From positions 60,001 through 92,000 of the forward strand of contig NZ_LGHJ01000019.1 in NCBI RefSeq assembly GCF_001306055.1: a stretch of DNA of 32,000 bases. Direction: 5' to 3'. Under the pieces are notes generated by a model, which was given only the letters and a program-made list of their open reading frames with translations, made no database searches and had not been told where the DNA came from. The translations under genes and the position numbers were made by a program. How positions within the stretch are numbered: position 1 is the first letter of the stretch; each line of letters begins with the position of its first letter. Below are positions 15,249 through 32,000 of this stretch, in pieces. Source of the stretch: Bellilinea caldifistulae. Lineage in GTDB: Bacteria > Chloroflexota > Anaerolineae > Anaerolineales > Anaerolineaceae.

Positions 15249-15660
15249 GGGGGGCTGATGGGGGTCGAACCCATCTCATCCCCTTCCGGGGACTACCACC
15301 TGAAAAATGATTTCTTAAAAAAAAGGGGTGGCTGATGGGGGTCGAACCCATCTCATCCCCTTCCGGGGACTACCACCTGAAAAATGATTTCTTAAAAAAA
15401 GGGGTGGCTGATGGGGGCCAACCCATCTCATCCCCTTCCGGGGACTACCACCTGAAAAATGATTTCTTAAAAAAGGGGTGGCTGATGGGGGCCAACCCAT
15501 CTCATCCCCTTCCGGGGACTACCACCTGAAAAATGATTTCTTAAAAAAGGGGTGGCTGATGGGGGCCAACCCATCTCATCCCCTTCCGGGGACTACCACC
15601 TGAAAAATGATTTCTTAAAAAAAGGGGTGGCTGATGGGGGTCGAACCCACAACCACCTGA
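15249..15660 (-). repeat. Tandem array of tRNA 3'-fragment units (five full 74-76 bp units plus a partial terminal copy)
   Basis: Units start at 15249, 15325, 15401, 15475, 15549 and 15624. On the minus strand each reads ...CAGGTGG TAG TCCCC-GGAA-GGGGA TGAG ATGGG-TTCGACC-CCCAT CAGCCAC C CC, that is variable arm + T arm + acceptor 3' strand, followed by an A/T-rich ~25 nt tail. Units 3-5 carry a variant (GGCCAACCC) that damages the T loop. No matching acceptor 5' strand (GTGGCTG) is present anywhere in the array. Confidence 0.9.
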
Positions 15661-15667
15661 TATACGA

Positions 15668-16519
15668 TCAATCTAATCCTACGAGTCGCGGTATTGGCAA
15701 ATATGGTTTTATGTCATCTATCGTCAGTCCGCGGGTGTAACGTTCTACCATTTCGATTGATGACCAGCGTCCTGCTATTTGTACGATCCGTGATGGTGCG
15801 CCGTTGCGTGTTGTCATAATAGCAAACGTGCGCCTCAAATCGTGGGGAGATAATTTAGACAATCCAGCATTTTTGGCCCAGCCTCGAACAATGACTTTTA
15901 GCCCATCCCTGGTAAGTTTGTTGCCTGGTGTGTTGCCACCAACAGAACAGAAGACATAACGAAATGATTTAGATACGATCCGTTTGCGTTCAGCAAGCCA
16001 GGCGATAAGAACCTGTCTCGTATAGTCCGAAAATGTTGCATTACCCCACTTGCCGCCCTTAATGATCACGGATAGATGGCAGGCATCAAGGTCGAGATAT
16101 TTAATTTCTAGATTGCAAACTTCTGAACAGCGCAGGCCTGTATCCAGCAGTACGCAGAATATCGCCAAATCTCGTTTTCCCTTCGGCGTGGCTGTGTTGA
16201 ATGATTCAAGTATTTTGACAACACTGTCATCGCCCAAAAAACGTTGCGGTGCTGTATCCCTGCGCTTGATTTTCAAATTCAATGCAGGATGACTATCACC
16301 ACATCGCCAGCGCAAATAAGACCGTATGGCACAGTACGCAACCCAGCGATGGTTATCTCCCCAATCGTTGTGTTTGTATAGCCAGTATCGTAGTTGCTCT
16401 GGCGTTAGTCTCAACAAATCGCCAATTTCGCGTTCGGCAAGACCAAGTAGTCGCCTATACGACTCAATAGTACATTGAGAATATGCCTTGGAGTTTAGAA
16501 AATCGGTAATGTCTGACAT
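15668..16519 (-). CDS. int: Tyrosine recombinase / phage-type integrase
   Basis: Catalytic pattern present: R in TGLRCSE, KGGKWG, HDLRRTF, GRWSS, ERY. Preferred start is the ATG at 16519, 7 nt after GGAGG (the track extends to a TTG at 16549). The stop lies 8 nt from the last tRNA-fragment copy. Confidence 0.9.
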   Translation of the reverse strand: MSDITDFLNSKAYSQCTIESYRRLLGLAEREIGDLLRLTPEQLRYWLYKHNDWGDNHRWVAYCAIRSYLRWRCGDSHPALNLKIKRRDTAPQRFLGDDSVVKILESFNTATPKGKRDLAIFCVLLDTGLRCSEVCNLEIKYLDLDACHLSVIIKGGKWGNATFSDYTRQVLIAWLAERKRIVSKSFRYVFCSVGGNTPGNKLTRDGLKVIVRGWAKNAGLSKLSPHDLRRTFAIMTTRNGAPSRIVQIAGRWSSIEMVERYTRGLTIDDIKPYLPIPRLVGLD

Positions 16520-16578
16520 GGCGCAACCTCCGAGGTGCGCATTGTGCAAGTTACATACCGAAAAACAACCGATATTGT

Positions 16579-16636
16579 TACAAATCCGATAATTAGCGGT
16601 TACAAATCCTATAACTATTATAGAAGCAACAAATCC
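16579..16636 (+). promoter_or_regulatory. Three direct repeats of (T/A)ACAAATCC in the int / structural-operon divergent region
   Basis: TACAAATCC at 16579-16587 and 16601-16609, AACAAATCC at 16628-16636. A fourth TACAAATCC sits at 17979-17987, upstream of the 52-aa gene. Confidence 0.4.
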
Positions 16637-16647
16637 ATAATCAAATT

Positions 16648-16785
16648 ATGACAACTCTGTTTTATATGCCTATATCACGCGAGTTTGTCATCCTGATCGT
16701 GGGAGTTTTGTTTTATTGCATATCGGCTGTGATCATTACATTTGGCATATCACAACTGATTGATCACCTTGTCGGGAAAGAATAA
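16648..16785 (+). CDS. Small hydrophobic protein, 45 aa (below the ORF-track cutoff)
   Basis: MTTLFYMPISREFVILIVGVLFYCISAVIITFGISQLIDHLVGKE. One TM helix. Its TAA overlaps the ATG of the next ORF (TAATG coupling). No clear SD. Confidence 0.4.
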   Translation: MTTLFYMPISREFVILIVGVLFYCISAVIITFGISQLIDHLVGKE

Positions 16786-16976
16786 TGGACCCAACCCCAA
16801 CCCCGCTGCCAACTCCCATGTGGATGACGGATATTCAATTGGCTGATACCGTCCAATTTCACATGGAACGATCAATTACCTATGGGCAGATGGCGGTTAT
16901 ATCCGCCATTATGCTTTTGCTCGTTATTGTCATCATCGTGGCGCTGTTGATTGTGGTCAAGGAGTGGTTGCAATGA
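16785..16976 (+). CDS. Small membrane protein, 63 aa (Pro/Thr-rich N-terminus, C-terminal TM helix)
   Basis: ORF track. C-terminal MAVISAIMLLLVIVIIVALLIVV helix. ATGA overlap with the next gene. Confidence 0.6.
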   Translation: MDPTPTPLPTPMWMTDIQLADTVQFHMERSITYGQMAVISAIMLLLVIVIIVALLIVVKEWLQ

Positions 16977-17650
16977 GGAAATTTTCAATAACAACTCTAT
17001 TGTTGTTGCTATTGGTTACTCCCAACAACGTTGTTCATGCCGCTGTACCAACAGGATACATTGAAACCATTAGTGATTGTACTGGCGTTATTACTGGGTT
17101 TGCATGGGACCCGGATTATTCAATTGGTGGTGTAGTTGTTTATGCCATGCTAAATGAAACAACAACGCCTTCTACATTAACGGCAATTGCTTATACAGTG
17201 TCCAGGTCGTCAGACAAATATTTTGAGCTAACGATTCCTTCTAAATATCGCAACGGCACAACTATATATATTCGGGTTCAGGATGTCAACAGTAAAAACA
17301 CACCGACTGGTATATACACTACGATAGGAACGCTTTACATGAATTGCGTTACAAATACGCCAACTAAAACTAGAACCCCAACAGCAACGCCAACTAAAAC
17401 CGCAACTATTACACCTACGGCGACATTCACTAATACGGCAACTCTTACAGTTACACCAACGGAAACCAGTACGGCAACTCCAACGATCACTCTAACACCA
17501 ACACCAAAAGCCACCATTCCAATACCAACATTCACGCCCGTGTTTGAGATTGCTATTGCCACAGATACGACCTTTGTAGTTTACGGCATTGTGGGATCGG
17601 GAGACGTGGCAGCCGCCAGTTTTTTTTGCTCGCGGCACTCGTACTATTGA
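16973..17650 (+). CDS. Exported protein with a ~100-aa globular domain and a long Thr/Pro-rich linker (225 aa)
   Basis: AAGGAG 9 nt before the ATG at 16973. Signal peptide MRKFSITTLLLLLLVTPNNVVHA. TP-rich segment encoded at 17351-17539. Short hydrophobic C-terminus. Confidence 0.75.
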   Translation: MRKFSITTLLLLLLVTPNNVVHAAVPTGYIETISDCTGVITGFAWDPDYSIGGVVVYAMLNETTTPSTLTAIAYTVSRSSDKYFELTIPSKYRNGTTIYIRVQDVNSKNTPTGIYTTIGTLYMNCVTNTPTKTRTPTATPTKTATITPTATFTNTATLTVTPTETSTATPTITLTPTPKATIPIPTFTPVFEIAIATDTTFVVYGIVGSGDVAAASFFCSRHSYY

Positions 17651-17678
17651 TATTCGGCATAGGTGGAGTAACTAAAAA

Positions 17679-17816
17679 ATGGCTGCACTAGAACCATTGA
17701 CAATGGACATTCTTCAAAATGCGTTTTACGGATTTTGCCTGGTATTGACGGCGATCACCGTTAGCCACCTACTGGTTCGTCAATTGAAATGGTTTTTCTG
17801 GATAGATGATGAATGA
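17679..17816 (+). CDS. Small hydrophobic protein, 45 aa (below the ORF-track cutoff)
   Basis: GGTGGAG 10 nt upstream of the ATG. MAALEPLTMDILQNAFYGFCLVLTAITVSHLLVRQLKWFFWIDDE. One TM helix. Confidence 0.5.
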   Translation: MAALEPLTMDILQNAFYGFCLVLTAITVSHLLVRQLKWFFWIDDE

Positions 17817-17961
17817 AGAGTTTGCCTATTTCCAGATAGCGATGGCGTATGTATTCGGGCCAATCATTCAATGGATGATTGCGCTATTCCTCGCCATGGG
17901 ATTCATGGCCGCGTCATTCGTTATCTGGTTAGGATTACTACGAAAGATGTCCAAGTTATGA
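17806..17961 (+). CDS. Small hydrophobic protein, 51 aa (below the ORF-track cutoff)
   Basis: MMNEEFAYFQIAMAYVFGPIIQWMIALFLAMGFMAASFVIWLGLLRKMSKL. Acidic N-terminus, hydrophobic core, basic C-terminus. Overlaps the previous ORF by 11 nt. Confidence 0.45.
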   Translation: MMNEEFAYFQIAMAYVFGPIIQWMIALFLAMGFMAASFVIWLGLLRKMSKL

Positions 17962-18043
17962 AAGGGGGTGATCCACTCTACAAATCCAAACGTTTAAGCC
18001 TTTTGTATTCAGACCAAACTAAACAGAAAGGAGGTGAGTCCCC

Positions 18044-18202
18044 ATGCTGTCGTTCAGCCTTGACTTTTCGGGCGTGTTCTCGAACGCATCCCAGATCGTC
18101 AACGGTCTGTTTCCCGTGTACCTGGTCCCTCTGGGTATCACCCTGGGCATCGGTATTCTGGGCGTGATCGTGAAGGCTTTTTCCTCGATTATTCGCGGTT
18201 AA
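18044..18202 (+). CDS. Small hydrophobic protein, 52 aa, with a near-perfect ribosome-binding site (below the ORF-track cutoff)
   Basis: AAAGGAGGTGA ends 5 nt before the ATG. MLSFSLDFSGVFSNASQIVNGLFPVYLVPLGITLGIGILGVIVKAFSSIIRG. One TM helix and a basic tail. Followed by a 13-bp perfect hairpin. Confidence 0.65.
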   Translation: MLSFSLDFSGVFSNASQIVNGLFPVYLVPLGITLGIGILGVIVKAFSSIIRG

Positions 18203-18237
18203 GCCGAATCTGTCTGCGTTCAAAACACACCACCCCA

Positions 18238-18276
18238 CCTCATGGGGGCTGCCTCAGGTGGGTAGCCCCCATGAGG
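18238..18276 (+). promoter_or_regulatory. Perfect 13-bp stem / 13-nt loop hairpin between the 52-aa gene and the 954-aa gene
   Basis: CCTCATGGGGGCT (18238-18250) pairs with AGCCCCCATGAGG (18264-18276). No T-tract follows. The SD of the next gene (AGGAGG, 18283-18288) starts 6 nt after the stem. CCACCT (18235-18240) can alternatively pair with AGGTGG in the loop (18256-18261). Confidence 0.6.
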
Positions 18277-18293
18277 CCATTCAGGAGGTTTGT

Positions 18294-21158
18294 ATGAAAA
18301 GGTTACTTGTACTTGCTGGTTTTATAGCGATGTTTCTAGCCCTAATGCTAATTGCATCAGCGGCCAATGATGTTTACGCTCAAACACCAACGCCAACCAC
18401 AACACCAACAGACCCAAACGCAACGCCTCATTACTACTTGATTGAACAAGATTTTGACCTGACATTTACACAAAATACAAACGATTATCCACTTCCAAAA
18501 GCAATGACGTGCGGTCTAGATGAAATGCGCGCCGCATCATTTACCGCTCTTTATCACTCAAATTCAGTTAGTGACCCCGCTGGTGGGAATATTATTTTCA
18601 GTATAAATAAATCAGGTACTGGATATACTGATTGGCCAGTTGTTTATGAATGGTATACTCCAAGCAATACTAACAATGTGACTATCCAGGTAAATGCGTG
18701 TGGCGGTAGGGGAGATGGAACGAATTTAACTTATTGCGAACAACTCAGGCAATTAAAGGGTAGTATTGAAGCATGGAATATAGTCACTAAGAATCTCAAT
18801 AATGAGGGAATTTCCAGAATACAAAGTGTATTTGCATGGAAGCAGAATGCAGGATGGTATGTAAAATTATTGAATGTTTCGCTATTATGTTACGGTACAA
18901 ATGAGCCATTGCCTAAAACGGAATTGAATTGTTGGGATTATTTTGAGATTGGCCAGCAAGTAGCCACTGATACCGTAAAGCCGTATAACGATGAGACATT
19001 ACCGCCTATCCTTTGGGAAGGTGAAAATGGCAAGGCAATGCCTGGCATAGAAGGTGGTAAATGGTATGCCGTAGAGGTAACAGACCCTTATTGGATGGAT
19101 GGAACAGGTGAAACGCAATGGTATCCGTCATACAAGGCCGAAATGTCGCCGTTCTGGTCGCTTGCAGGGGCGGTTGAATGGTACGAATTATCCCAATACC
19201 CTAATGGTTGTTGGCAGCCGTTAGGCGATTATGGCAAAGGTCGCTTATTTTTCTATGCCGATGAGCAGATCTCGGATTATCTGCATGGTATCAGGGCCTA
19301 CAACGAATATGGCGATTATTTTGATAACCTCGGCCTCATGCACTACAAGGTTAATGAGGCAGTATACAATCCACCACCAGCGGCCTGCGAGGCTAATTTT
19401 GATATTGGGGAGTTTGTGAATACAATACGTGTCCCTGCATGGTATTCAGATGGATTACCTGTATTTGCCTATTCATCGCCAATTCCAAACACCACCTACG
19501 TGATTGATATATCCTCCGAGCCATGGTTTGACGAAGAAGGTAAACCTCAACACGGTGTGGATATATCCATTGATGGCGGTCAAACATGGGTGAACATTCG
19601 TGATATGAACGGCGAATGTGAGGCAGAGAAAGGGGTTGGCGGTTATAAGTACTATTTCAAATACGTTGCAGGGCGCAATTATCGAATACGGGCATCCGAT
19701 GGCAATGACCCGCTGGAATATCTTGGAAATAAGGGCTATGTAAAGTTTTCTGTTTACACAGCCACATCTTACAAGGCCGATGGTGCATGTTCTCAATCAT
19801 TCACACTCGGCAATGTGTTGAAAACCGGCAGTATACCGGCCAATCTCAGCGGGGGAGATCGCATCCAATACAACCTCACCCCTAACAACTGGTATGCCAT
19901 TGAGATTGTGCCTCCGCCGTGGTCAAATGCCGGTGTAGAGAGCAAAGAAGCGGATATATCCGGCGGTGATTCCGGCTGGCAAACCTTTTATCCGTTGGCC
20001 GACTTTCCGGGTGTCGCTTGTGCAGAAGAAAATGACGGCTATAAAAGGATTTATTTCCGCGCTCAATATTCTCAATACTTGCTTCGCGCCCATGAGGATG
20101 TTTTGCAATACGAGGATAATTCGGGGAGCGTAAACTATAAATTGTATGGGGTTGAGGTGTCAGCCTCAAATCCGCCGCCGGGTTCTTGCGAATCGGCGTA
20201 TAACACAAATCGCATTGTGGTCAGTTTGCCAATTTTGTATGCCAATCTCGAAAATGGCATTGAATTGAAATTAGCACCTGGTAAATACATGCTTGAAACC
20301 ATGGAAGGCCCTTGGCTGAACGAGGCCACGCCATCTTATGATGTTGAAATTACCAGCGGCGGCCTATTGGGTACGTATGTGCCAATAAACAGCCAGGGGG
20401 TATCTGACCCATTAGAGTGTGTTGTGCCGTTATCAGATGGATTACATTACCGTGCTTATTTTTCGGTTGAGGCAGGAAAATATTACAGGGTTAGGGTACA
20501 TGACCCGGAGGGTACTTTTGCCACGAATACTGGTCAGATGGTGATAGCCATATATCGTGTATCTGACATTAACGAACCACCCCCCGATCCAGCGGATTAC
20601 ACCGTGAACGGGTGTAATTCGATATGCTTGCGTCCAGATTCAATTCTCGATGTGCCAGAATGGATTGAATACAATCGGTGTGCGTTCAGCAAATGGATTA
20701 GTTTTTGCCCATATCATGCTGAATCGCTTATGTCTGTCCTTGTTGAATTTAATAACCGTGAGCCGTTTGGTACACTTCTGCAATTCACCTCATTACCTCA
20801 GAAAATTCAGGAGGAATTTAACCAGTACAGATGGGCAGACGCTCAGGGTGGCGATGGGGCAGAAGTTTTAGGTGGTGGTGTGCAACCTTGGGAAATACTG
20901 GCACAATTGCCAAGCAGCAGCCCATTCAACAATGGCCGAATAGATATTGTGAAGCCAATGACGCCATTTTCAACATTCTGCCAAAGCGAAATGACCAAAG
21001 CCGTTGGGGCTAAATTATCTGCGCCAATGTGTTTTGCTCTAAATGTCCTGAATGGACTGGGAGTAAATAAATGGATAAATACTATTTTCAACCTGGTTCT
21101 GGCTGGCGTCTTTTTTATGTATATCTACAACGCATGGATAAAGCAATTTGGAAACTAA
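18294..21158 (+). CDS. Large exported, C-terminally membrane-anchored protein (954 aa) built from four tandem ~135-150 aa repeats
   Basis: AGGAGG 5 nt before the ATG at 18294 (the track begins at 18258). Signal peptide MKRLLVLAGFIAMFLALMLIASAANDVYA, then a TP-rich stretch. Four internal repeats encoded at 18930-20615. C-terminal TM INTIFNLVLAGVFFMYIYNAW. Confidence 0.85.
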   Translation: MKRLLVLAGFIAMFLALMLIASAANDVYAQTPTPTTTPTDPNATPHYYLIEQDFDLTFTQNTNDYPLPKAMTCGLDEMRAASFTALYHSNSVSDPAGGNIIFSINKSGTGYTDWPVVYEWYTPSNTNNVTIQVNACGGRGDGTNLTYCEQLRQLKGSIEAWNIVTKNLNNEGISRIQSVFAWKQNAGWYVKLLNVSLLCYGTNEPLPKTELNCWDYFEIGQQVATDTVKPYNDETLPPILWEGENGKAMPGIEGGKWYAVEVTDPYWMDGTGETQWYPSYKAEMSPFWSLAGAVEWYELSQYPNGCWQPLGDYGKGRLFFYADEQISDYLHGIRAYNEYGDYFDNLGLMHYKVNEAVYNPPPAACEANFDIGEFVNTIRVPAWYSDGLPVFAYSSPIPNTTYVIDISSEPWFDEEGKPQHGVDISIDGGQTWVNIRDMNGECEAEKGVGGYKYYFKYVAGRNYRIRASDGNDPLEYLGNKGYVKFSVYTATSYKADGACSQSFTLGNVLKTGSIPANLSGGDRIQYNLTPNNWYAIEIVPPPWSNAGVESKEADISGGDSGWQTFYPLADFPGVACAEENDGYKRIYFRAQYSQYLLRAHEDVLQYEDNSGSVNYKLYGVEVSASNPPPGSCESAYNTNRIVVSLPILYANLENGIELKLAPGKYMLETMEGPWLNEATPSYDVEITSGGLLGTYVPINSQGVSDPLECVVPLSDGLHYRAYFSVEAGKYYRVRVHDPEGTFATNTGQMVIAIYRVSDINEPPPDPADYTVNGCNSICLRPDSILDVPEWIEYNRCAFSKWISFCPYHAESLMSVLVEFNNREPFGTLLQFTSLPQKIQEEFNQYRWADAQGGDGAEVLGGGVQPWEILAQLPSSSPFNNGRIDIVKPMTPFSTFCQSEMTKAVGAKLSAPMCFALNVLNGLGVNKWINTIFNLVLAGVFFMYIYNAWIKQFGN

Positions 21159-22384: not shown

Positions 22385-22391
22385 GGTGATT

Positions 22392-22976
22392 ATGTTTAGA
22401 CGCACTCATTTTGTAATGGCAGAACCAGGCATAAATCCCATGGAAATACCGGAAGATCGCAAGAGAAAACCGGTTAATCCACTATTGTTATTGTTTGGCG
22501 GTATGATTGCATTATCGTTGCTTTGCGGAGGTGTTATATTTGCCGTAACTGGCAATAAGCGCGCATCTGCCGCCGATAGTCAGACACCTACAATGACCAC
22601 AACCGCAACCCACACACCTACTCCAACAGCAACGCTAACCAGATATGCAAGCATAACCGCAACCTACCAACGGATTACGGCCACGGCCACGCAAACCAGT
22701 ACTCCAATGGCTACACAAACCCCTTGGGTACAGGAAGTAACCCGCATTGTGGCGGTAGATCGCCCCATTTATGTAGATCGTCCCGTTTACAGTACGGTTG
22801 TAGTGCCTATGCCAATTGTTGTTACAGTCATCCACACTCAGATTGTGGTGGTAACCGCAACACCAACATTCACGCCAACACCAACCGAAACGCCTACTCC
22901 AACGTTAGAAACAACCATAGCACCAACCGAAACACCAACTCTAACGCTGGAAATGACACAAACACCTGAAAATTAG
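22392..22976 (+). CDS. Single-pass membrane protein with two Thr/Pro-rich regions (194 aa)
   Basis: GAGGTGA immediately upstream of the ATG at 22392. TM LLLLFGGMIALSLLCGGVIFAV. TP-rich tracts flank a VDRPIYVDRPVY / valine-rich core. Confidence 0.7.
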   Translation: MFRRTHFVMAEPGINPMEIPEDRKRKPVNPLLLLFGGMIALSLLCGGVIFAVTGNKRASAADSQTPTMTTTATHTPTPTATLTRYASITATYQRITATATQTSTPMATQTPWVQEVTRIVAVDRPIYVDRPVYSTVVVPMPIVVTVIHTQIVVVTATPTFTPTPTETPTPTLETTIAPTETPTLTLEMTQTPEN

Positions 22977-22977: not shown

Positions 22978-23088
22978 GTCGTACAATATAGTCGTACAAT
23001 ACATATTGTGCGACACTATGGCCGCAAAAACCCCCCGAAATTAGGGGATTCGGGGGGTTTTTAATCGCTTAAACTGCGTCGCACAATG
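22978..23088. repeat. Four copies of GTCG(T/C)ACAAT flanking the convergent-operon terminator
   Basis: GTCGTACAATA at 22978-22988 and 22991-23001. Inverted copy TATTGTGCGAC at 23004-23014, which forms a palindrome with copy 2. GTCGCACAAT at 23078-23087. Confidence 0.5.
23026..23062. terminator. Bidirectional rho-independent terminator between the convergent operons
   Basis: AAAAA CCCCCCGAA (23031-23039), loop ATTAGGGGA, TTCGGGGGG (23049-23057), TTTTT. A-tract and T-tract on either side. Confidence 0.8.
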
Positions 23089-25517: not shown

Positions 25518-26916
25518 CCGTGATTAACTCGCTGGACAAAGATTTAATCTTGTCCGCAAGGTCATGTTCACACTGCGTAGATAGCGGGCCCAAGGCATAA
25601 ATAAACCATACACGTTTGGCGGCCGGTATTGTCTGTTGAAATCCAAGAGCCTGCCTTGTTTTATTGGACAGCGCGCCGGGATCATTGCCGCAGTTTGGCA
25701 TTACGTAAATCTGCAATTCCGGCATTGCCCATTTAAGAGTGACGGCTGGACCGTCATTGGTAGCAAGTACGACATCGCCAGGCTCATAACCCTGATTAAG
25801 GATTGACTGTATCCGGTCCACATATTCCGCTTTCATCACTGGTGGCATGATATAAACCGCCGCCAGGCCGATAACCAATATCGGCGTAATCAGTATTGAC
25901 GAAAACATAAATTTCAACTTGCTTTTGGTGATCACGCCAGAAAGCAGGATATAAACAACCGGGGCAATTGGCAGAAAAGCACGATGGAGTAATACTGGTT
26001 GCCAGAGCAGGCTTACACAAACCGCAAGCACAAATGGCGCAAGGATGATTGCAAGCAACTCTAATTGTTTTTCAAACAATCCCTCGACTATTGACCAAGT
26101 AAATAAGCCATACGCAAGCATGATAAATAATGCTTGCAACGGTTCAGGGGTTGCGTGAGATAAAAACAGCATTTGCACAACGTATAAAACCGCACCGGGA
26201 GTTACCGGCATGATCCAGTAGTTACCGTGTATCTCCCGCATCTGAGAAAACAAAACCGGCAACCAGATAACGGCATACAAAAATACGGGAATAACAAACG
26301 ATAACAACAAATCCTTTGGTCTAGCCCGATCTTCCGGCTGCCATTTCTCGAAACCATAATATCTATCGGTAGATACGATAAGCGGATGGGGTAACTCACG
26401 CTTAGCAGCAATCAAAAATAACACAAACGCATAAAACAATCCGTAATTGTGAGTAAATAGCAATGCGGTTACGCCAATGGCAACCGGTAAAAACTTGCGC
26501 CGATTGACAAAATAGAGTGTCAAAAGAAACTCAAAACTGAGCAGGCTATACATGCGTGCTTCCTGAGCAAACCACAACTGAGCGGGCATAAGAGCCGTCA
26601 ATGCGGTGGCCAGCAGGCGCGCTTGTTTGGATTTGAGATAATCAGCGGATAAGAACCAGACAATTACAACACATCCCACAGAAAATACCGCTGATATAGC
26701 CCGTATCTGCCACGCACCAACACCAATAACTCTTGTTACCAGCCACACAAGCAGGTAATAGAGTGGGGGATGAGTATCCCCCGCGATTGCATCTAGCAGG
26801 GCTGGCAAGTCGAGGCGCATAAGCAGGCCGGTAAATGCCTCGTCATACCAGTACGGCGCGGCATCGAGGCGGTAAAAGCGAATGATTGTGGCTATCAGGA
26901 AAAGTAAATAAATCAT
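25462..26916 (-). CDS. GT-C fold membrane glycosyltransferase (PMT_2 / ArnT / GT39-GT83-like)
   Basis: 484 aa, about 11 TM helices. First-loop acidic motif YWYDEAF...GDTHPPLYY typical of the family. C-terminal soluble domain. ATGA coupling with the upstream gene. Confidence 0.8.
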   Translation of the reverse strand: MIYLLFLIATIIRFYRLDAAPYWYDEAFTGLLMRLDLPALLDAIAGDTHPPLYYLLVWLVTRVIGVGAWQIRAISAVFSVGCVVIVWFLSADYLKSKQARLLATALTALMPAQLWFAQEARMYSLLSFEFLLTLYFVNRRKFLPVAIGVTALLFTHNYGLFYAFVLFLIAAKRELPHPLIVSTDRYYGFEKWQPEDRARPKDLLLSFVIPVFLYAVIWLPVLFSQMREIHGNYWIMPVTPGAVLYVVQMLFLSHATPEPLQALFIMLAYGLFTWSIVEGLFEKQLELLAIILAPFVLAVCVSLLWQPVLLHRAFLPIAPVVYILLSGVITKSKLKFMFSSILITPILVIGLAAVYIMPPVMKAEYVDRIQSILNQGYEPGDVVLATNDGPAVTLKWAMPELQIYVMPNCGNDPGALSNKTRQALGFQQTIPAAKRVWFIYALGPLSTQCEHDLADKIKSLSSELITVEDNPLKTLGIYLYEQSW

Positions 26917-27332
26917 AGAACTGGTTTTCTAAACCTTTTGGTAATGAGATAAACAATCCTGTACCACCACGAGGATGATTGACGGAGTTTGTAATCTGCT
27001 TTTACGGCCTGCGTTTCGGGATCGTCCTCAACCGCCTCGTCAATCTCTCTGCGGATTTCCGCTTTTTCGGTTGGGGTGAGGCGATCTGTCCATGCTTGCG
27101 CCGCACGATTCGCCAAACCACCGCTTTTTCTACGCCTGCGCCCACTCCCAAGGCCAAGGCGGTTTGCCAGGTTGAAATAATCCGTCATCTGCGGCTCTTT
27201 TTTGCGCTTTCTGCGCACCCGGCCAACGCCTGGTGCAAGGCGCACAAGGCCACGCTGGCGGTGGCGTCTATCACTAACCTCAAAGACATTACCCAAAATA
27301 CCAAGACCCGTTGACCGTTTGCGCCGTCCCAT
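26913..27332 (-). CDS. Arginine/lysine-rich protein (139 aa), possible nucleic-acid-binding protein
   Basis: SD GAGGGGG upstream. RRKR, RRHRQR, RVRRKRKK and GRRRRK clusters. Acidic middle. Coupled to neighbours on both sides. Confidence 0.6.
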   Translation of the reverse strand: MGRRKRSTGLGILGNVFEVSDRRHRQRGLVRLAPGVGRVRRKRKKEPQMTDYFNLANRLGLGSGRRRRKSGGLANRAAQAWTDRLTPTEKAEIRREIDEAVEDDPETQAVKADYKLRQSSSWWYRIVYLITKRFRKPVL

Positions 27333-27334
27333 AA

Positions 27335-27550
27335 TTACCCCCTCACGGAATAGATTAACGTCAACAGCAACAACACCAATATAGAGCCTGGCACAAGAGC
27401 GCGCAGGAAAGCACGGAAACGAGATTTGATAAAACCTCTATCTGCGATAATCCATGCAACGACAAGAGAGAGCGTGATCATAAACAGCACTAGCAACGTG
27501 TGATCACGCATTGCATACTGGTTGATCAAGGTCTCAAATCGTGGCGTCAT
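27335..27550 (-). CDS. Two-TM membrane protein (71 aa)
   Basis: Preferred start is MTPRFETL at 27550, after GAGG. The track's 98-aa version starts further upstream and overlaps a better small ORF. Confidence 0.55.
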   Translation of the reverse strand: MTPRFETLINQYAMRDHTLLVLFMITLSLVVAWIIADRGFIKSRFRAFLRALVPGSILVLLLLTLIYSVRG

Positions 27551-27551
27551 A

Positions 27552-27680
27552 TTAACCTCTGTCATTTTCTCTTCGTTCTTCAAGTTCGGCAATTTTTTCT
27601 TCCAATTCAGTAACTTTTCGCATTGCCGCAATTAACTCTTTTTCGAGTTGCTTTATTTGCTCATCAATTTCATCCATCAT
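27552..27680 (-). CDS. Possible 42-aa coiled-coil protein (below the ORF-track cutoff)
   Basis: MMDEIDEQIKQLEKELIAAMRKVTELEEKIAELEERRENDRG. Heptad-like. Its stop is 1 nt from the next start. Weak SD. Confidence 0.3.
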   Translation of the reverse strand: MMDEIDEQIKQLEKELIAAMRKVTELEEKIAELEERRENDRG

Positions 27681-27956: not shown

Positions 27957-28472
27957 CTAATTTCTCTCTTCTGGCTTTATCCAGCCTATACCACAAAGAT
28001 TAAAAAAGTCGTTTTCTTCTGGGGTATGAAGCGTCTCCCCGTTCTCGACATGATGAATCGCTCCATCTCTCACAACATAAGCAGACGGTAGAAAACCGCC
28101 GTACCGCTTCGGAGTAACTAGTTTTTTTGAAAACTCTGCACCCCCAGTGCGGAGCGCAAAGATTACGCCCCATTCGGCAGGTGGTAAAACGATGAACAAG
28201 TCCAAATTAATCCCTTCTGGTAATATATACTGCTTGTAACGTTCTCCGTTCTTAATCGCTGGGGCTGGTAAAGAGAGATTAAAATAACCGTTTGGGTTTC
28301 CGAAAAGGTCTCTGACCATCAATGGTATTGCCACAATCTCTATATCCCCTACTTCTGACTTTCTCCGCCTGATACTCCCAGCAATCTCAATGCGTTTGCA
28401 GAACGGTGCAAGCATTTCTAAGTACTTACTGGCAGTCCTCTCGGCTAATTCGAGCGGGATTTTTGTTTTCAT
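27957..28472 (-). CDS. Minimal family-X (Pol beta-like) nucleotidyltransferase, palm + thumb only (171 aa)
   Basis: GSIRRRKSEVGDIEIVAI matches the PolX GS-x-RRG-x5-D-x-D-hh palm motif, with Glu at the second acidic position. INLDLFIV supplies the third acidic residue. FALRTGGAEFSKKL resembles the PolX thumb (TGS..FN..LR). Confidence 0.75.
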   Translation of the reverse strand: MKTKIPLELAERTASKYLEMLAPFCKRIEIAGSIRRRKSEVGDIEIVAIPLMVRDLFGNPNGYFNLSLPAPAIKNGERYKQYILPEGINLDLFIVLPPAEWGVIFALRTGGAEFSKKLVTPKRYGGFLPSAYVVRDGAIHHVENGETLHTPEENDFFNLCGIGWIKPEERN

Positions 28473-28498
28473 GCTACTAGCCTCTTTGCGTTCTGTAT

Positions 28499-28804
28499 TC
28501 AGCGTTCCGCGGTTTTGGCAGAACGGTTACGCATTTGCCAGCGGATTTTAGCCTGTATCGCCGGGGTGGGCGCACGCCGCGGCTTGCGTGCCATGCGCTG
28601 CATTGGTTTTAGTTTCGGATATATGACTAACTCGCGATTAGCACGCTGGACGCTGATCAATCCACACGCAGACAATCGCTTGATTTGCTCATGTGCATTA
28701 CTGTAATCCACGTTGAGATCAGTACACAATCTCCGCAGTGAGCGCACCCCACCAGTCGAGTAGATACGTGATAACAAGAGATACTGTACAGTCGTTAACC
28801 GCAT
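28499..28804 (-). CDS. Small winged-helix (MarR/ArsR-like) DNA-binding protein with a basic tail; candidate element repressor
   Basis: GGAGGTGAT directly upstream of the ATG at 28804 (the track starts at a GTG at 28816). LRRLCTDLNVDYSNAHEQIKRLSACGLISV is an HTH-like segment. Divergent from the early operon. Confidence 0.7.
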   Translation of the reverse strand: MRLTTVQYLLLSRIYSTGGVRSLRRLCTDLNVDYSNAHEQIKRLSACGLISVQRANRELVIYPKLKPMQRMARKPRRAPTPAIQAKIRWQMRNRSAKTAER

Positions 28805-28874
28805 AATCACCTCCACGATATTTATTATTTTAGAACATTATTTCTCGTTATCATAGGGCTTACCAATAATTATT

Positions 28875-28956
28875 TAGAACAATTTTAGAACATTACATTA
28901 GAGTTTACAACAGATTGCTATATAGTATTGACAAATAGTACCGTATGCGGTACAAT
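28875..28956 (+). promoter_or_regulatory. Early promoter P1 with operator-like repeats (copy A of the duplicated cassette)
   Basis: TTGACA (28928-28933), 17 nt spacer, TACAAT (28951-28956). The palindrome GTACCG-TATG-CGGTAC fills the spacer. TAGAACA boxes at 28831, 28875 and 28886. 28875-28934 is identical to 29974-30033. Confidence 0.7.
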
Positions 28957-28984
28957 ATAATCAAGATCACGATAGGAGACACAA

Positions 28985-29281
28985 ATGAATGCAACAATAA
29001 AAAATCACAAAGTACAAATTAATGGCAACCTGATCACCGGAGACACATATCCGGTGAAAAGCTGGATCAAAGAATACCTGAACGGAAAATGGGATGCTGA
29101 CCGCCGCGGATGGGTGGTTGATCCAAAGCAACTTGAGCGGTTCTTAAACAAGCCATACGGTGTCATGCCCGATAACACCATCGCCGCAACACCCGCCAAC
29201 ATCAACACGCACACGCGTAACGATTACGATCTTTGCCCAAAATGCCATACCTATTGCTACGGTGATTGCACCGCCCGATAA
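28985..29281 (+). CDS. Hypothetical protein (98 aa) with a C-terminal Cys cluster (CPKCHTYCYGDC)
   Basis: AGGAG 6 nt upstream. First gene after P1. Confidence 0.7.
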   Translation: MNATIKNHKVQINGNLITGDTYPVKSWIKEYLNGKWDADRRGWVVDPKQLERFLNKPYGVMPDNTIAATPANINTHTRNDYDLCPKCHTYCYGDCTAR

Positions 29282-29293
29282 GGAGATGAGAAA

Positions 29294-29878
29294 ATGAACC
29301 CAAACGAGTTGCCAAAATTGGAATTAGCAGGCGCTGTTCTGCGGCGCCGGTATATTGTCCGTGACAATAAGGGGCGATACGGAATCGCCACTTATGATCC
29401 CTCCAAAGAAGACGTCCTATTTGCTCACCCGTTAGACGTTCCAGCAATCATCAGAGATGTTATCATCGCGGAAAATATGTATGGGAGTTTATTAACTGAC
29501 ACTCCATTCAATCGCAAAGACGGCCGTTATCGTGGCGTCTGGTACGACTACACTGGTTATAGTCAGATTGCCGATGATGACGTACGGACATTAGAAATTG
29601 TGGATGATCTTGGATGGATAGTGTCAGACCAGGCGATGATGAAATTTGCGCATCCAACGGCAAATGCTTCACCAGAAGACGCAATCATCAATATCAAGCA
29701 GGCAATGATTTATTGCCGCGAAATCGGCATCAATATAACCGAGCGAGGAATACGCAAATTATGTAAAACTGGTGGTATTGAGGCTCAAAAAATCGGGCGG
29801 GACTGGGCAATGACTTACAGAGCAATCAACTCTTACCTTGACAAACGCTCAAAACGTGTTAGAAAATCAAAAAACTAA
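29294..29878 (+). CDS. Hypothetical protein (194 aa) with a C-terminal excisionase/MerR-like HTH
   Basis: AAGGAG upstream. ITERGIRKLCKTGGIEAQKIGRDWAMTY resembles HTH_17-type DNA-binding motifs. Confidence 0.7.
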   Translation: MNPNELPKLELAGAVLRRRYIVRDNKGRYGIATYDPSKEDVLFAHPLDVPAIIRDVIIAENMYGSLLTDTPFNRKDGRYRGVWYDYTGYSQIADDDVRTLEIVDDLGWIVSDQAMMKFAHPTANASPEDAIINIKQAMIYCREIGINITERGIRKLCKTGGIEAQKIGRDWAMTYRAINSYLDKRSKRVRKSKN

Positions 29879-29888
29879 AAACTTGAAC

Positions 29889-29920
29889 AAAAAATCCCCG
29901 CCAGTGAGGCGGGGATTTTT
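29889..29920 (+). terminator. Rho-independent terminator (copy A of the duplicated 67-bp cassette 29889-29955)
   Basis: AAAAA ATCCCCGCC (29894-29902), loop AGTGA, GGCGGGGAT (29908-29916), TTTTT. Confidence 0.8.
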
Positions 29921-29973
29921 GACATATTCTTCAAACCGCTGATATTCCACCAATTTTTTAATGCATCTTCAAA

Positions 29974-30055
29974 TAGAACAATTTTAGAACATTACATTAG
30001 AGTTTACAACAGATTGCTATATAGTATTGACAATTGCTATATAGTATGCTATACT
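29974..30055 (+). promoter_or_regulatory. Early promoter P2 with operator-like repeats (copy B of the duplicated cassette)
   Basis: TTGACA (30027-30032), 17 nt spacer, TATACT (30050-30055). ATTGCTATATAGTAT is repeated at 30013-30027 and 30033-30047 and contains the palindrome CTATATAG. TAGAACA boxes at 29974 and 29985. Confidence 0.7.
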
Positions 30056-30084
30056 ATAAGCAAGATAACGAAAGGAGCGATGAG

Positions 30085-30279
30085 ATGAACGCCGAAGAAT
30101 TGAAAGAATACCTCGATAACGAAATAACAGATGCTGACATTGAGGCATGGCACAACGGAGAACTTACCCAGCACATGAGCGAACTTCTTGATTACGTCTA
30201 TCTGCATATCCCAGATGCAGAAGTGCAAATCTGGGGATCCCGCGTCGGGAGCGAGCCTCTACATATCATTGTAAAATAA
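30085..30279 (+). CDS. Small acidic hypothetical protein (64 aa)
   Basis: AAAGGAG 7 nt before the ATG at 30085. The track's longer version would begin inside the promoter. Confidence 0.65.
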   Translation: MNAEELKEYLDNEITDADIEAWHNGELTQHMSELLDYVYLHIPDAEVQIWGSRVGSEPLHIIVK

Positions 30280-30332
30280 TCAATTATCCCTCGCCGGGTA
30301 GGCGGTCAGACCCGGCAGAAAAGGAGACTGAA

Positions 30333-30662
30333 ATGACTGAAAGAATTTATTCTGACACCCGCCCTTATGACGGCGGGCGAGCCGATGAGTATGGCCGCCT
30401 GATTGAACTCGGCAAAGAACATTATGACCGCGTAGAACATCACTTTACCCACATTCGCGCCGGTGAGGTTTTGGAAGTTGTTACTAGCCGTAGTTACTGG
30501 GGCCCGGACGGATATGAGGCTCCAGGCCGGGTTTGGCGGGTAACTTGGGACGGCGAAGGCGAAGCCAAGATTGAGTATGTCCGCGAAGCCGAGTACAGCG
30601 ATTACCCACGCGGACATTCTGTTCACCGCGCGCGTGGCCATAAATGCGAGATTTGCCAGTAG
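30333..30662 (+). CDS. Hypothetical protein (109 aa), C-terminal HKCEIC
   Basis: AAAAGGAG upstream of the ATG. Confidence 0.7.
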   Translation: MTERIYSDTRPYDGGRADEYGRLIELGKEHYDRVEHHFTHIRAGEVLEVVTSRSYWGPDGYEAPGRVWRVTWDGEGEAKIEYVREAEYSDYPRGHSVHRARGHKCEICQ

Positions 30663-30713
30663 TTTTTCAAAAAACCTTGCCGGTGGGTGGTCAAACCGGC
30701 ACAGGAGGATGAA

Positions 30714-31127
30714 ATGATAGCGTTTTACGATTCTCGATTAGATTGTTTGTTGACTGGGAGGTTAAAAATAGACCAGTCGCCAATTATGGAAGAGTTAACA
30801 CAAGTAGACATTGAAACCCAAGAAGTCAAGAAAGTAACTCTCATTTCTGGCCTTATGTCAATGGGCGAGTTAGAAAGTGCAAAGGAAATTCTTGTGCAAG
30901 CCGGTTTTTATCTCGCCGACATTATTGATGCGAACGACCCTGCTTGGTATCAATATATTTACATCCGACCAGAACGCATACAATACGCCGAAAGTGCAAA
31001 TGAAATAGAGCAAGTCGAAAATGATACCGTTGTTGTCTTACCGGACGGTTACATTATCGCGATAACGGATAAGCGTGGAAATAAGATAACCCACCGAATG
31101 CGAAATAATGTGCTAATAGAACTATGA
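30714..31127 (+). CDS. Hypothetical protein (137 aa)
   Basis: CAGGAGG 5 nt before the ATG at 30714 (the track starts at 30687). Confidence 0.7.
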   Translation: MIAFYDSRLDCLLTGRLKIDQSPIMEELTQVDIETQEVKKVTLISGLMSMGELESAKEILVQAGFYLADIIDANDPAWYQYIYIRPERIQYAESANEIEQVENDTVVVLPDGYIIAITDKRGNKITHRMRNNVLIEL

Positions 31128-31447
31128 AAACGCCTAACCTGTCCGTTCATCTCAATAACCTGAGTGCCGTGCGCGAAACCGCACGGCGTTTGGGGTTTAC
31201 ATTGTCCCGCGGCCATCGCGCCGGTGACGGCAGTATCCAGCAAATGCTGGAAGCCATTGCTGCTGGCGAGGTGCTTGTCCTCTGCCACGTCTACGACTGG
31301 CCGGAGGACATGCGCCGCGATGCCGCCTACCTGCGCGGCCTGGCCGCCCGCATTGAGCGAGATGACAACGCTCTTGCGGCAGCGGAAACGCTGCGCGGGC
31401 TAGCCGCTGCGATGGAAGCGGCGGCAGACCTGAAAAGTTTTGAATAA
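31124..31447 (+). CDS. Hypothetical Ala/Arg-rich helical protein (107 aa)
   Basis: ATGA overlap with the upstream gene. Locally GC-rich, so several shadow ORFs overlap it. Confidence 0.65.
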   Translation: MKTPNLSVHLNNLSAVRETARRLGFTLSRGHRAGDGSIQQMLEAIAAGEVLVLCHVYDWPEDMRRDAAYLRGLAARIERDDNALAAAETLRGLAAAMEAAADLKSFE

Positions 31448-31477
31448 AAAATCCCCGCCTCACCGGCGGGGATTTTT
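31446..31477. terminator. Bidirectional rho-independent terminator (copy B of the duplicated 67-bp cassette 31446-31512)
   Basis: AAAAA ATCCCCGCC (31451-31459), loop TCACC, GGCGGGGAT (31465-31473), TTTTT. Sits between convergent genes. Confidence 0.8.
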
Positions 31478-31517
31478 GACATATTCTTCAAACCGCTGAT
31501 ATTCCGCCAATTCATCG

Positions 31518-31859
31518 TCACTTCTGTAATTGCGCTTTGCATGATTTTTCAATCTCGTCTAATTCGTGACGTATATCAGCAGGTGTATAAGATGATTTTC
31601 CTTCCCGCGCATAATGCAACGCCGATATGTAATCACCACCCCAAATAGCCAATGTAGCGGCAGATCGGTAGATCACACTCCGGGTTGGTTCATTGTCGGC
31701 ATTTGGCAATAATCTTTTGGCTGCCATGACTTCATAAGACATTGCACATAGAGCATAAAATTTTGCCATTTCGAGGTCACCATTTTTTCTAGCAATGTAT
31801 GCTTTATCGGCTAGTTCCAATGCAGAATTGTGTAAGTTTATCGTTATATTGTCTGCCAT
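31518..31859 (-). CDS. Hypothetical helical (TPR-like) protein (113 aa)
   Basis: AAAGGAGA 4 nt before the ATG at 31859 (the track begins at 31883). Confidence 0.65.
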   Translation of the reverse strand: MADNITINLHNSALELADKAYIARKNGDLEMAKFYALCAMSYEVMAAKRLLPNADNEPTRSVIYRSAATLAIWGGDYISALHYAREGKSSYTPADIRHELDEIEKSCKAQLQK

Positions 31860-31870
31860 TTTGTCTCCTT

Positions 31871-32000
31871 TCATTTTGCCCATTGTGCGTCACATTCACA
31901 TGGATATTGACCACAATAAGGGCATATCTTGAATTTGTTTATTTTCGGCTTTGGCGGTTTCAGGTTACGCAACCGGTGTAACAACGTTCCAGGCTTCGAT
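31871..32000 (-). CDS. 3' end of an ORF entering from the right edge, ending ...KICPYCGQYPCECDAQWAK (zinc-ribbon-like)
   Basis: Open frame from 31999 down to the TGA at 31871-31873. Not in the track because no Met lies inside the window. Its stop overlaps the SD region of the next gene. Confidence 0.35.
   Translation of the reverse strand, partial: SKPGTLLHRLRNLKPPKPKINKFKICPYCGQYPCECDAQWAK

Follow-up and report, generated by a model that had tools for sequence, protein, structure and literature searches.

The locus and its boundaries

We analysed a window of 32,000 nt from contig NZ_LGHJ01000019.1 (assembly GCF_001306055.1) of Bellilinea caldifistulae GOMI-1, a member of the Anaerolineae (Chloroflexota). 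The organism is a filamentous, strictly anaerobic thermophile isolated from an anaerobic digester, and a monoderm envelope is predicted for the Anaerolineaceae (PMC5481317). The genes at window positions 1-15,200 are ordinary ones of the host, encoding two-component systems, an Opp-type ABC transporter and a lactate permease. To their right lies a complete 20.6-kb integrative, self-replicating, plasmid-like element, inserted in the 3′ end of a tRNA-His gene. An earlier note, made from the window alone, had placed a capsid-less integrated element at 15624-32000. The element is indeed complete and capsid-less, and it runs on beyond the window: its length is 20,639 bp, with the right end at about 36,300 in window coordinates. 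Its right part was read from locus L001 (contig DF967971.1, GCA_001050215.2), which prolongs the window rightwards by 9.4 kb; adding 21,123 to an L001 coordinate gives the window coordinate. Gene functions were assigned from sequence and predicted folds. The ends of the element are marked by the following features:

15623-15661: attL, an exact 39-bp direct repeat, AGGGGTGGCTGATGGGGGTCGAACCCACAACCACCTGAT, the displaced original 3′ end of tRNA-His
L001 15139-15177: attR, a 39-bp copy identical to attL, inside or abutting tRNA-His (L001 15140-15213)
15668-16519, minus strand: tyrosine integrase, 283 aa from ATG, open reading frame (ORF) to 16549; PF00589 1.1e-30, phrog_1 3.7e-28
15244-15649: host-side tandem array, 74-bp units, 5.4 copies, each like the 3′ half of tRNA-His, outside the element (TRF)
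Predicted attP junction of this copy: ...TTTGTTTTCAT-[39-bp core]-ATACGATCAATC...
Predicted attB junction of this copy: ...TTCTTAAAAAA-[39-bp core]-CCACAGTCAGGTG...

An intact tRNA-His(GTG) has the attR copy as its 3′ end; it lies 20,639 bp rightwards of attL and 4.3 kb past the end of the window, and the host gene for HisRS follows directly. The earlier note had described a tRNA-fragment att site beside the integrase and predicted a second copy at an intact tRNA to the right, and both were found; the gap between attL and the integrase stop codon is 6 bp. A 21-mer of the att sequence had no occurrence in 100 shuffles. The G+C content of the element is 45.9%, compared with 49.9% and 49.6% in the flanks. 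In a related Anaerolineaceae metagenome-assembled genome (MAG; L022) HisRS, tRNA-His, a tandem array and OppF are found with no element between them, and the flanks are about 83% identical at the nucleotide level. This empty site gives the exact extent of the insertion. Scans for tRNA genes and Rfam families in the window alone gave no match, the att copies there being fragments.

The attL copy is the last unit of the host-side array. In each 74-bp unit the 3′ half of tRNA-His is supplemented by a T-run and, in the variable region, by a further 21-nt hairpin. At the L022 empty site the array after tRNA-His (L022 9383-9780) has 68-bp units, in which spacer and hairpin sequences differ. The arrays are homogenised within each genome, and three other assemblies break at the array. 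Such arrays may represent scars left by serial integrations, or may serve as terminators or as decoy or secondary att sites.

A single FtsK-type motor

The element contains two convergent operons. The first, on the minus strand, reads g42, g98, g139, a GT-C glycosyltransferase, an FtsK-type ATPase and g222, and is separated by a terminator from the envelope operon described below:

23026-23062: bidirectional terminator, a perfect 14-bp inverted repeat with flanking A/T runs, between the two convergent operons
23102-23692, minus strand: g222, a lipoprotein with lipobox LLTGC, a TP-rich linker and a conserved Cys-rich C-terminal domain
23670-25517, minus strand: FtsK/SpoIIIE-type ATPase, 602-615 aa; PF01580 4.9e-29
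25462-26916, minus strand: GT-C glycosyltransferase (PMT_2/ArnT-like), at least 8 transmembrane (TM) segments; PF13231 3.1e-07, 31 bits against a cut-off of 26
26913-27332, minus strand: g139, 139 aa, 25% Arg+Lys, C-terminal amphipathic segment, part of the conserved core
27335-27680, minus strand: g98 (two TM segments, conserved) and g42 (a 42-aa coiled-coil ORF)

The ATPase has a family-specific N-terminal domain, a motor domain and a C-terminal region resembling a winged helix-turn-helix (wHTH). The 615-aa protein is soluble, no hydrophobic or TM segment having been found in it. A six-frame P-loop scan detected only this gene, together with ParA, which has a deviant Walker A motif. The description of a soluble FtsK/SpoIIIE ATPase with a C-terminal wHTH-like region as the sole motor thus stands. 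Conserved across 31 aligned members of the family are Walker A (GSGKS), Walker B (IDEW), the motif RAVGIH..TQ and the C-terminal wHTH-like block.

The best match in the PDB is FtsK 2ius (2.3e-31, about 27-33% identity), and the E. coli and Pseudomonas FtsK structures match at about 1e-31. In tblastn searches the alignments to actinobacterial FtsK genes cover residues 252-602, and so extend into the post-motor region. The protein resembles chromosomal FtsK/SpoIIIE in that its motor domain matches these best and is followed by a wHTH-like region; unlike them, it has neither the N-terminal 4-TM domain nor the long linker, and it is encoded in an operon with membrane and wall proteins. The NCBIfam FtsK model scored 110 bits and the plasmid_TraB model (NF041214) 31.9 bits, against a cut-off of 800. 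Among the matches listed, identity to FtsK-like genes of plasmids and phages did not exceed 35%. By these comparisons the protein is no TraB, no packaging ATPase from a known phage clade and not the division protein of the host; it heads a family of its own, with members of 550-700 aa. A place in a known packaging or segregation clade, which the earlier note had held open, is thus not what we see. The family was found on elements of about 20 kb in every context examined.

Two other candidates were set aside. PADLOC showed only generic FtsK-domain similarity to SspH, and a defence system was rejected. The widest match to the FtsK-type protein in the phage collection (residues 281-602) was MT835656.1 (L021), an unverified, unannotated 22.9-kb 'Bacteriophage sp.' from human faeces; it was dropped because its long ORFs overlap in six frames, which suggests high-GC DNA.

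The GT-C gene, recognised from the sequence alone and upheld by its PMT_2 score, is kept in relatives and duplicated in some. For g222, a lipoprotein with a 3D domain had been claimed. The lipobox is present; the 3D domain has no hidden Markov model support, as Pfam (E<=10), NCBIfam and a PDB profile search gave no match to a 3D/DPBB domain, and the resemblance is at motif level only. A fold of this type is suspected. Neither g139 nor the N-terminal domain of the ATPase gave anything usable in Pfam at E<=10.

The envelope operon

The plus-strand operon encodes four tiny membrane proteins followed by larger exported or anchored proteins, and converges on the FtsK operon:

16648-17961, plus strand: small TM proteins g45a, g63, g45b and g51, with g228; start of the operon
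16964-17650, plus strand: g228, exported, Thr/Pro-rich
18044-18202, plus strand: g52, membrane protein of 52 aa; its TM segment, LGITLGIGILG, is a glycine zipper
18238-18276, plus strand: hairpin with a 16-bp stem, between g52 and g954
18294-21158, plus strand: g954, 954 aa, signal peptide, C-terminal TM anchor
21071-22384, plus strand: g437, likely start at 21134, two C-terminal TM helices, M23A-like
22377-22976, plus strand: g199, membrane-anchored, Thr/Pro-rich (33% T+P)

The small hydrophobic proteins, of which g51 is conserved in relatives, the Thr/Pro-rich exported proteins, the Arg-rich 139-aa protein and a MarR-like wHTH protein were all found where they had first been placed.

The earlier note had called g954 spike-like. 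Its signal peptide and C-terminal anchor are present, and no match to a known fusogen was found. In the AlphaFold2 model (mean pLDDT 67.6, with residues 210-760 at 80-90) four tandem lectin/C1q-like jelly rolls are followed by a Cys-rich helical membrane-proximal domain, modelled at lower confidence, and a TM helix. Foldseek against the PDB returned a single-chain adiponectin/C1q-head trimer and LecA/PllA-type lectins (probability 1.0, one domain). Against a viral structure library the protein gave just generic CBM, PA14 and FN3 phage proteins, and no fusion protein or pleolipovirus spike. Sequence and profile searches of the PDB with g954, g437 and g222 gave nothing meaningful, and the C-terminal domain of g954 had nothing usable in Pfam at E<=10. 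The g954 family comprises 269 representative clusters in a library of 1.84 billion proteins. Its C-terminal 190 or so residues are the most conserved part, the Cys pattern is kept, and every close homologue has a TPTPT-rich N-terminus behind the signal peptide. On the strength of the model, g954 is read as a putative carbohydrate-binding adhesin.

An M23-like peptidase had been proposed for g437, and the predicted structure agrees. Foldseek with the AlphaFold model (pLDDT 74.8) returned LasA, beta-lytic protease and pseudoalterin (3it5, 8af1, 6ik4) at probability 0.99-1.0 (1.0 for LasA and beta-lytic protease), with target-normalised TM-scores of 0.50-0.55 against M23A structures; there is no Pfam match, so that the M23 assignment comes from fold alone. 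Residues H188, D201, H246, H288 and H290 are invariant in 19 homologues. The spacings of 13 residues (H-D) and 58 residues (H-H) are those of His23, Asp36 and His81 in LasA (residue numbers from PMC12579053). In LasA these residues have metal-binding and catalytic roles, and the five invariant residues agree with the His, Asp, His ... HxH set of the subfamily. By its modelled fold, then, g437 is a predicted M23A peptidase that N- and C-terminal helices anchor in the membrane.

Thr and Pro together make up 31-33% of g228 and g199. By analogy with actinobacterial protein O-mannosylation, this composition suggests that the Thr/Pro-rich N-terminus of g954, g228 and g199 may be substrates of the PMT-like GT-C enzyme that the element encodes.

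The most conserved protein of the family, g52

A strong Shine-Dalgarno sequence, AAGGAGGTGA, precedes g52, in agreement with the strong translation signal claimed for it, and the hairpin between g52 and g954 is possibly an attenuator that sets the g52:g954 ratio. In elements whose g954 proteins are 23-28% identical and whose FtsK-type proteins are about 42% identical, g52 is 73-94% identical, which makes it the most conserved protein of the family. Between the window and relative L015, 50 of 53 g52 codons specify the same residue and 31 of these differ in nucleotide sequence (75% nucleotide identity), and synonymous sites are saturated. Since the nucleotides differ while the residues are kept, the constraint is on the protein and not on a DNA or RNA signal. 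None of 64 clusters of g52 homologues is annotated, and Pfam at E<=10 gave nothing usable. Its likeness to a Pf3-type coat protein is one of layout only. Relative L018 carries two tandem g52 copies (2166-2553), 77% and 68% identical to the window copy.

These properties bear on a rival explanation, that the element is a capsid-less enveloped virus of plasmavirus or pleolipovirus type, or a plasmid transmitted in vesicles like pR1SE. On this account g52 would be the major envelope protein, g954 a glycosylated receptor-binding spike and g139 a protein that condenses DNA and tethers it to the membrane; the FtsK-type ATPase would load the circle into a bud, and the M23A peptidase and the lipoprotein would cut the wall at exit and entry. 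A tiny protein with a strong Shine-Dalgarno sequence, a downstream hairpin and 73-94% identity, where other proteins of the element show 25-55%, would suit such a role. So would the signal peptide and C-terminal anchor of g954, which evolves fast as a receptor-binding protein does, and the presence of the Arg/Lys-rich g139 in the conserved core. There is also a precedent in Acholeplasma virus L2, which is enveloped, has a circular double-stranded DNA (dsDNA) genome of about 12 kb and related tRNA-integrated proviruses, and has no regular capsid (PMC12662186). Set against this, g954 matches lectins and CBM-like domains and not fusion proteins, and no homology to virion proteins of plasmaviruses, pleolipoviruses or other viruses was detected. 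The known enveloped dsDNA bacterial virus has wall-less hosts, and the wall of a monoderm would presumably make entry by fusion hard. We regard this explanation as unlikely, though as a serious competitor. The idea of an FtsK-like gene in Acholeplasma virus L2 was not borne out: the profile published by the virus taxonomy committee (ICTV) gives integrase homologues only, and L2 is absent from the tblastn matches.

Absence of phage and conjugation hallmark genes

No ORF of the complete element has a Pfam or PHROG match to a capsid, terminase, portal, tail, relaxase, VirB4 or VirD4 protein. The absence of phage and type IV secretion system (T4SS) genes first noted for the window therefore holds for the full 20.6 kb, including the part beyond 32,000. 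This disposes of an ordinary tailed prophage or T4SS-type integrative and conjugative element (ICE) with its hallmarks outside the window. Such an element was conceivable while the sequence was cut by the window end at 32,000; the final 4.3 kb to attR contain no hallmark genes and are followed by host HisRS, the left flank is host DNA, and the empty site fixes the extent. The complete sequence refutes this explanation, to which we now attach practically no weight.

Other virus groups were considered in turn. Megablast of the element against the phage collection gave no DNA match. None of the traits of the Inoviridae (a Zot-type ATPase, a rolling-circle Rep, a single-stranded DNA-binding protein) was detected among the element's ORFs. 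Homologues of Plasmaviridae and Pleolipoviridae proteins gave no sequence or fold match in libraries where these families are poorly represented. For Varidnaviria there was no Pfam or PHROG match to a jelly-roll capsid protein, structure prediction having covered only part of the ORFs, and the ATPase is a 615-aa FtsK-type protein.

The last result concerns the idea of a membrane-containing icosahedral virus of PRD1/PM2 type, with a jelly-roll capsid missed by sequence searches and a packaging ATPase of the FtsK superfamily. Viruses of this kind combine FtsK/HerA-superfamily ATPases, small membrane proteins, wall hydrolases and integrases (PMC4981718, PMC5894146), and g954 does contain jelly-roll domains. 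These, however, lie within an exported, membrane-anchored protein, and the motor is a full-length FtsK-type translocase with a wHTH and a strong PF01580 match, not a short A32-like ATPase. No element ORF matches a capsid in PHROGs or Pfam, a complete 20.4-kb circular relative with the same gene set has no precomputed Pfam capsid match, and the remaining unassigned proteins are mostly small or clearly regulatory. A virus of this type is very improbable.

Replication, partition and accessory genes

The 4.3 kb past the window hold the genes for a replication initiator (Rep), a ribbon-helix-helix (RHH)-like protein and ParA, five small ORFs, xis and a small membrane-protein gene. These and the remaining features of the element are:

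16577-16617: operator-like pair of 19-nt direct repeats, GTTACAAATCCnATAAnTA, lying between int and the envelope operon (repeat search)
27957-28472, minus strand: mini family-X polymerase/nucleotidyltransferase, 171 aa, palm and thumb only, accessory; PF14791 1.5e-05
28499-28816, minus strand: MarR-like wHTH regulator, candidate repressor
28985-29878, plus strand: g98b (Cys-rich C-terminus) and g194 (C-terminal HTH_17, excisionase-like)
29886-31517, plus strand: accessory cassette g81-g109-g146-g107, no family matches
31518-31883, minus strand: g121, no function assigned
31871-32000, minus strand: Rep gene, 3′ end only (product of 302 aa, lambda-O-like), the remainder lying past the window
L001 10748-15213: remainder past the window, with Rep, iterons, centromere-like repeats, g120, ParA, Xis, g85 and attR/tRNA-His

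The N-terminus of Rep matches phrog_9773, 'replication initiation O-like', at 2.4e-14; there is no Pfam match. About nine iterons, GACTTTCTCGATAAT, lie within the Rep gene (L001 11172-11329), an arrangement as in lambda O. ParA (PF13614, 7e-42) is followed by g120, a 120-aa protein with weak RHH-family similarity, beyond which lie three 34-nt repeats with six copies of GGGGACACC. Arrays of another 10-12-bp motif occupy the same position in two relatives, and for this reason the repeats beside the par genes are read from their sequence and position as a putative centromere, which is more likely than clt. Xis, with a double HTH_17 domain (4e-11), is encoded at L001 14432-14827, at the right end of the element. 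Partition by ParA and an iteron-dependent Rep point to a stable plasmid lifestyle, and this too speaks against an enveloped particle.

The 171-aa family-X protein matches residues 177-312 of Thermus PolX (3b0x) and has a 46%-identical homologue in L012; its size is near that of the minimal Pol X of African swine fever virus. Repeats and promoter-like sites occupy the divergent region facing the MarR-like gene (28817-28984). Two blocks of about 75 bp (29886-29960 and 31443-31517) bracket the 1.5-kb cassette g81-g109-g146-g107, each consisting of a perfect terminator hairpin, with differing loops, followed by the promoter-like sequence TTGACA-16-GATATT. The cassette may be inserted or exchangeable.

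Among the host genes, and unrelated to the element, is one at 2174-3862 (plus strand), within a two-component cluster, in which a pyridoxal phosphate-dependent (PALP) domain is fused to a C-terminal response-regulator receiver.

Relatives and circular forms

At least 179 close homologues of the FtsK-type ATPase were found in metagenome assemblies, at 40-96% identity and nearly all 550-700 aa long. The longest contigs that carry them cluster at 18-28 kb. Relatives L002/L020, L003, L009, L010, L015, L018 and L026/L027 have most of a syntenic set made up of int, small TM genes, g52, g954, g437, (g199), g222, FtsK, GT-C, g139, g98, MarR, Rep, the RHH-like gene, ParA and Xis, individual contigs being without some of these genes. 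Within the set, g51, g52, g954, g437, g222, FtsK, GT-C, g139 and g98 form a core that is syntenic across relatives. Together these sequences define a large family of elements of about 20 kb in Anaerolineae-type hosts, the host range being based on one isolate, two MAGs (one of them the empty site only) and metagenome contigs. We found no description of the family, nor of FtsK-type conjugation in Chloroflexota, in the literature.

In L002, L015 and L010 int, a mimic of a tRNA 3′ end of about 50 bp, a small membrane-protein gene and xis are contiguous. Because int, the mimic and xis adjoin, this is an attP arrangement, with the ends of the integrated form joined. The contigs of L002 (SRR28814848) and L020 (SRR28815404) have the same length, 20,444 bp, with 100% identity where the fetched parts overlap. 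Their breakpoints differ, one lying in g222 and the other in FtsK, and the stitched sequence is 20,414 bp. As each contig exceeds the stitched length by 30 nt (k-1, with k=31), as in a circular de Bruijn contig, the molecule is a 20,414-bp circle. Linear relative loci have no exact terminal overlaps, and the evidence for circularity consists of these permuted identical contigs. L026 is a relative integrated beside tRNA-Val in a 161-kb contig, and the same element occurs as a separate 18.75-kb contig in another sample. The ends of L003 together make the 3′ half of a tRNA-Cys-like sequence. Members of the family thus switch between tRNA-integrated and circular forms and use several tRNA targets.

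Genome-length circular contigs in metagenomes would also be expected of the enveloped particle considered above; two pattern scans of IMG/VR, one using the FtsK protein and the other the g954 alignment, found no relatives, which counts against it.

The family also bears on a third explanation, that the element is an integrative plasmid which does not transmit itself and spreads horizontally by other means. The FtsK and envelope module would then serve vertical maintenance, clearing or pumping copies across closing septa, or would remodel or glycosylate the host surface. Rep, ParA and Int/Xis suffice for persistence, the motor is closer to chromosomal FtsK than to TraB, and some relatives (L006 and L015) seem to be without FtsK in the sequence seen. 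GT-C enzymes of temperate elements, moreover, often alter host surfaces. Against this explanation, the whole module is syntenic across very divergent elements at differing tRNA genes and in many samples, which argues for frequent horizontal movement. An adhesin-like protein and two wall-directed proteins (a hydrolase fold being supported for the M23A protein only) are not needed for segregation, and the host presumably has an FtsK of its own. We consider a non-transmissible plasmid doubtful, on a par with an enveloped particle.

Several relatives showed further peculiarities. A second tyrosine recombinase is encoded in L003 (12293-13141), L020 (15130-16005), L015 (14153-15046) and L006 (17124-17978). 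It is XerC/D-like; in those copies for which Pfam data exist, the domains are Phage_int_SAM_1 and Phage_integrase. Its position in L003 and L020 is between the g222/FtsK and envelope operons, where the Bellilinea element has a terminator only. It might resolve episome multimers. L006 (from an Anaerolineales MAG, CAYZTL010000013.1) and L015 carry int, g51, g52, g954 and g437 and show no FtsK gene in the sequence seen; the g437 homologue of L006 has 922 aa. Such relatives may be decayed copies, larger elements or variants with another motor. One FtsK-family homologue (P0047; 47% identity, on a 19.8-kb contig) is filed under a 'Candidatus Bathyarchaeota archaeon' MAG. The archaeal label is probably a binning artefact of a free episome and does not point to an archaeal host.

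Discussion

[quoted passage not shown] Like them it falls in the range of 9-24 kb, has a tyrosine integrase and Xis, integrates in a tRNA 3′ end and would replicate autonomously after excision. It too has a single motor with an FtsK/SpoIIIE domain and several small hydrophobic proteins, lacks relaxase and T4SS, and lives in a filamentous, multicellular monoderm. AICEs and Streptomyces plasmids need no more than one FtsK-type protein to conjugate dsDNA (PMC2440964, PMC3218068). By the published definitions (Ghinet et al. 2011, PMC3218068; te Poele et al. 2008, PMC2440964) the integrase with tRNA integration and the FtsK/SpoIIIE-domain protein as only motor agree with an AICE, whereas the TraB family, the Rep type (RepSA, RepAM or Prim-Pol) and the Actinomycetales host do not. 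AICEs are found only in Actinomycetales (PMC3218068), and this element is in Chloroflexota; its initiator is of the lambda-O-like iteron type, its ATPase lies outside the TraB family and has an N-terminal domain of its own, and it carries a ParA partition cassette. Its large conserved envelope module (g52, g954, the M23A protein, GT-C and the Arg-rich protein) has no AICE counterpart. The AICE-type system suggested in the earlier note, in a possibly filamentous non-actinomycete host, therefore holds as an analogy of architecture and for the host, and fails as a class assignment. The element is not an AICE by membership; that it works like one is the most likely reading, to which we give about an even chance.

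Our preferred explanation is that the FtsK-type ATPase and the envelope set form an apparatus, free of capsid and T4SS, which moves the dsDNA episome between cells; we judge the chances of this to be evenly balanced. Transfer could take place between neighbours in a filament or between touching filaments, by a system that is TraB/Spd-like but independently assembled. Excision of the circle by Xis and Int and its replication by Rep and the iterons would come first. The episome would then be bound by a soluble FtsK-type hexamer through the C-terminal wHTH region, and the motor would dock on a membrane channel supplied in trans by the small proteins g52, g51 and g98. These would replace the 4-TM domain that chromosomal FtsK has in cis. 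The M23A peptidase and the lipoprotein would open the peptidoglycan locally, and the lectin-like anchored g954 would hold the partner cell, while the GT-C enzyme probably O-glycosylates g954 and the other Thr/Pro-rich proteins. Once in the recipient, the circle would be kept by Rep and ParA or integrated at a tRNA gene. Contact-dependent pumping through a small-protein channel, for which g52 is our candidate, is the simplest reading: the sole motor has no membrane domain and is co-conserved with tiny membrane proteins, one or more wall hydrolases (the M23A peptidase at least), an adhesin-like surface protein and a glycosyltransferase, and the host forms chains. In mechanism this would be a parallel to the transfer and spreading by TraB and Spd in Streptomyces (PMC2440964, PMC3218068).

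Several points weigh against transfer of this kind. The mechanistic steps after excision and replication are inferred, and no transfer has been observed. Circular forms were seen in relatives and not in the Bellilinea copy. With 32 bits against a cut-off of 800 in the TraB model, the ATPase is no relative of TraB. In AICEs the clt locus consists of 8-bp repeats to which the wHTH of Tra binds; an 8-mer search for a clt- or KOPS-like signal showed no clt-like array near the ATPase gene, and no 8-mer that was both shared and over-represented besides coding repeats and iterons. The conserved Arg-rich g139 has no obvious role in conjugation, and the N-terminal 190 residues and the C-terminal domain of g954 are poorly modelled. 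The extreme conservation and apparently high expression of g52 suit a virion component at least as well. Finally, ParA, Rep and Int suffice for persistence without horizontal transfer.

Outside the actinobacteria, DNA donation by ICETh1 in Thermus is driven by an FtsK/HerA-type ATPase (PMC5365140). The resulting 'transjugation' by ICETh1/TdtA of Thermus thermophilus resembles our preferred explanation in being non-actinobacterial and in using an FtsK/HerA-type ATPase without a T4SS (PMC5365140, PMC7767461). In Thermus, by contrast, the competence machinery of the recipient takes up the DNA. The parallel with TdtA-driven donation is a looser one. The element also shares traits with Plasmaviridae (L2), Pleolipoviridae and pR1SE-like plasmids: a circular dsDNA of 8-20 kb, tRNA integration, a lack of capsid genes, and a protein set in which small membrane proteins are joined by a large one bearing a signal peptide and a C-terminal anchor, and by a basic candidate for DNA condensation. 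It differs from these three groups in that there is no detectable sequence or fold homology, in that their hosts are wall-less Mollicutes or archaea, and in that no FtsK-type translocase was detectable in them here and they have no such ParA/iteron module. For ICETh1 we know of no comparable envelope module, Rep or Par.

Conjugation of dsDNA by a single FtsK motor is regarded as a peculiarity of mycelial actinomycetes. If the element does transfer itself, it would be a second, independently built dsDNA system, in filamentous Chloroflexota, and would indicate that this route evolves wherever cells form chains. There is a smaller chance that these elements of about 20 kb are instead a new capsid-less membrane-enveloped virus or infectious plasmid vesicle of walled filamentous Chloroflexota, and this would be the first enveloped dsDNA virus of a walled bacterium. 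In either case the family supplies conserved unannotated proteins, the most striking being g52, which is under extreme purifying selection. The lack of hallmark genes hides the family from current detectors of viruses and ICEs, so that mobilome surveys probably under-count such elements. Anaerolineae abound in digesters and sediments and are hard to manipulate, and a natural integrative shuttle with known att, ori and par parts would, if transfer is real, open them to genetics.

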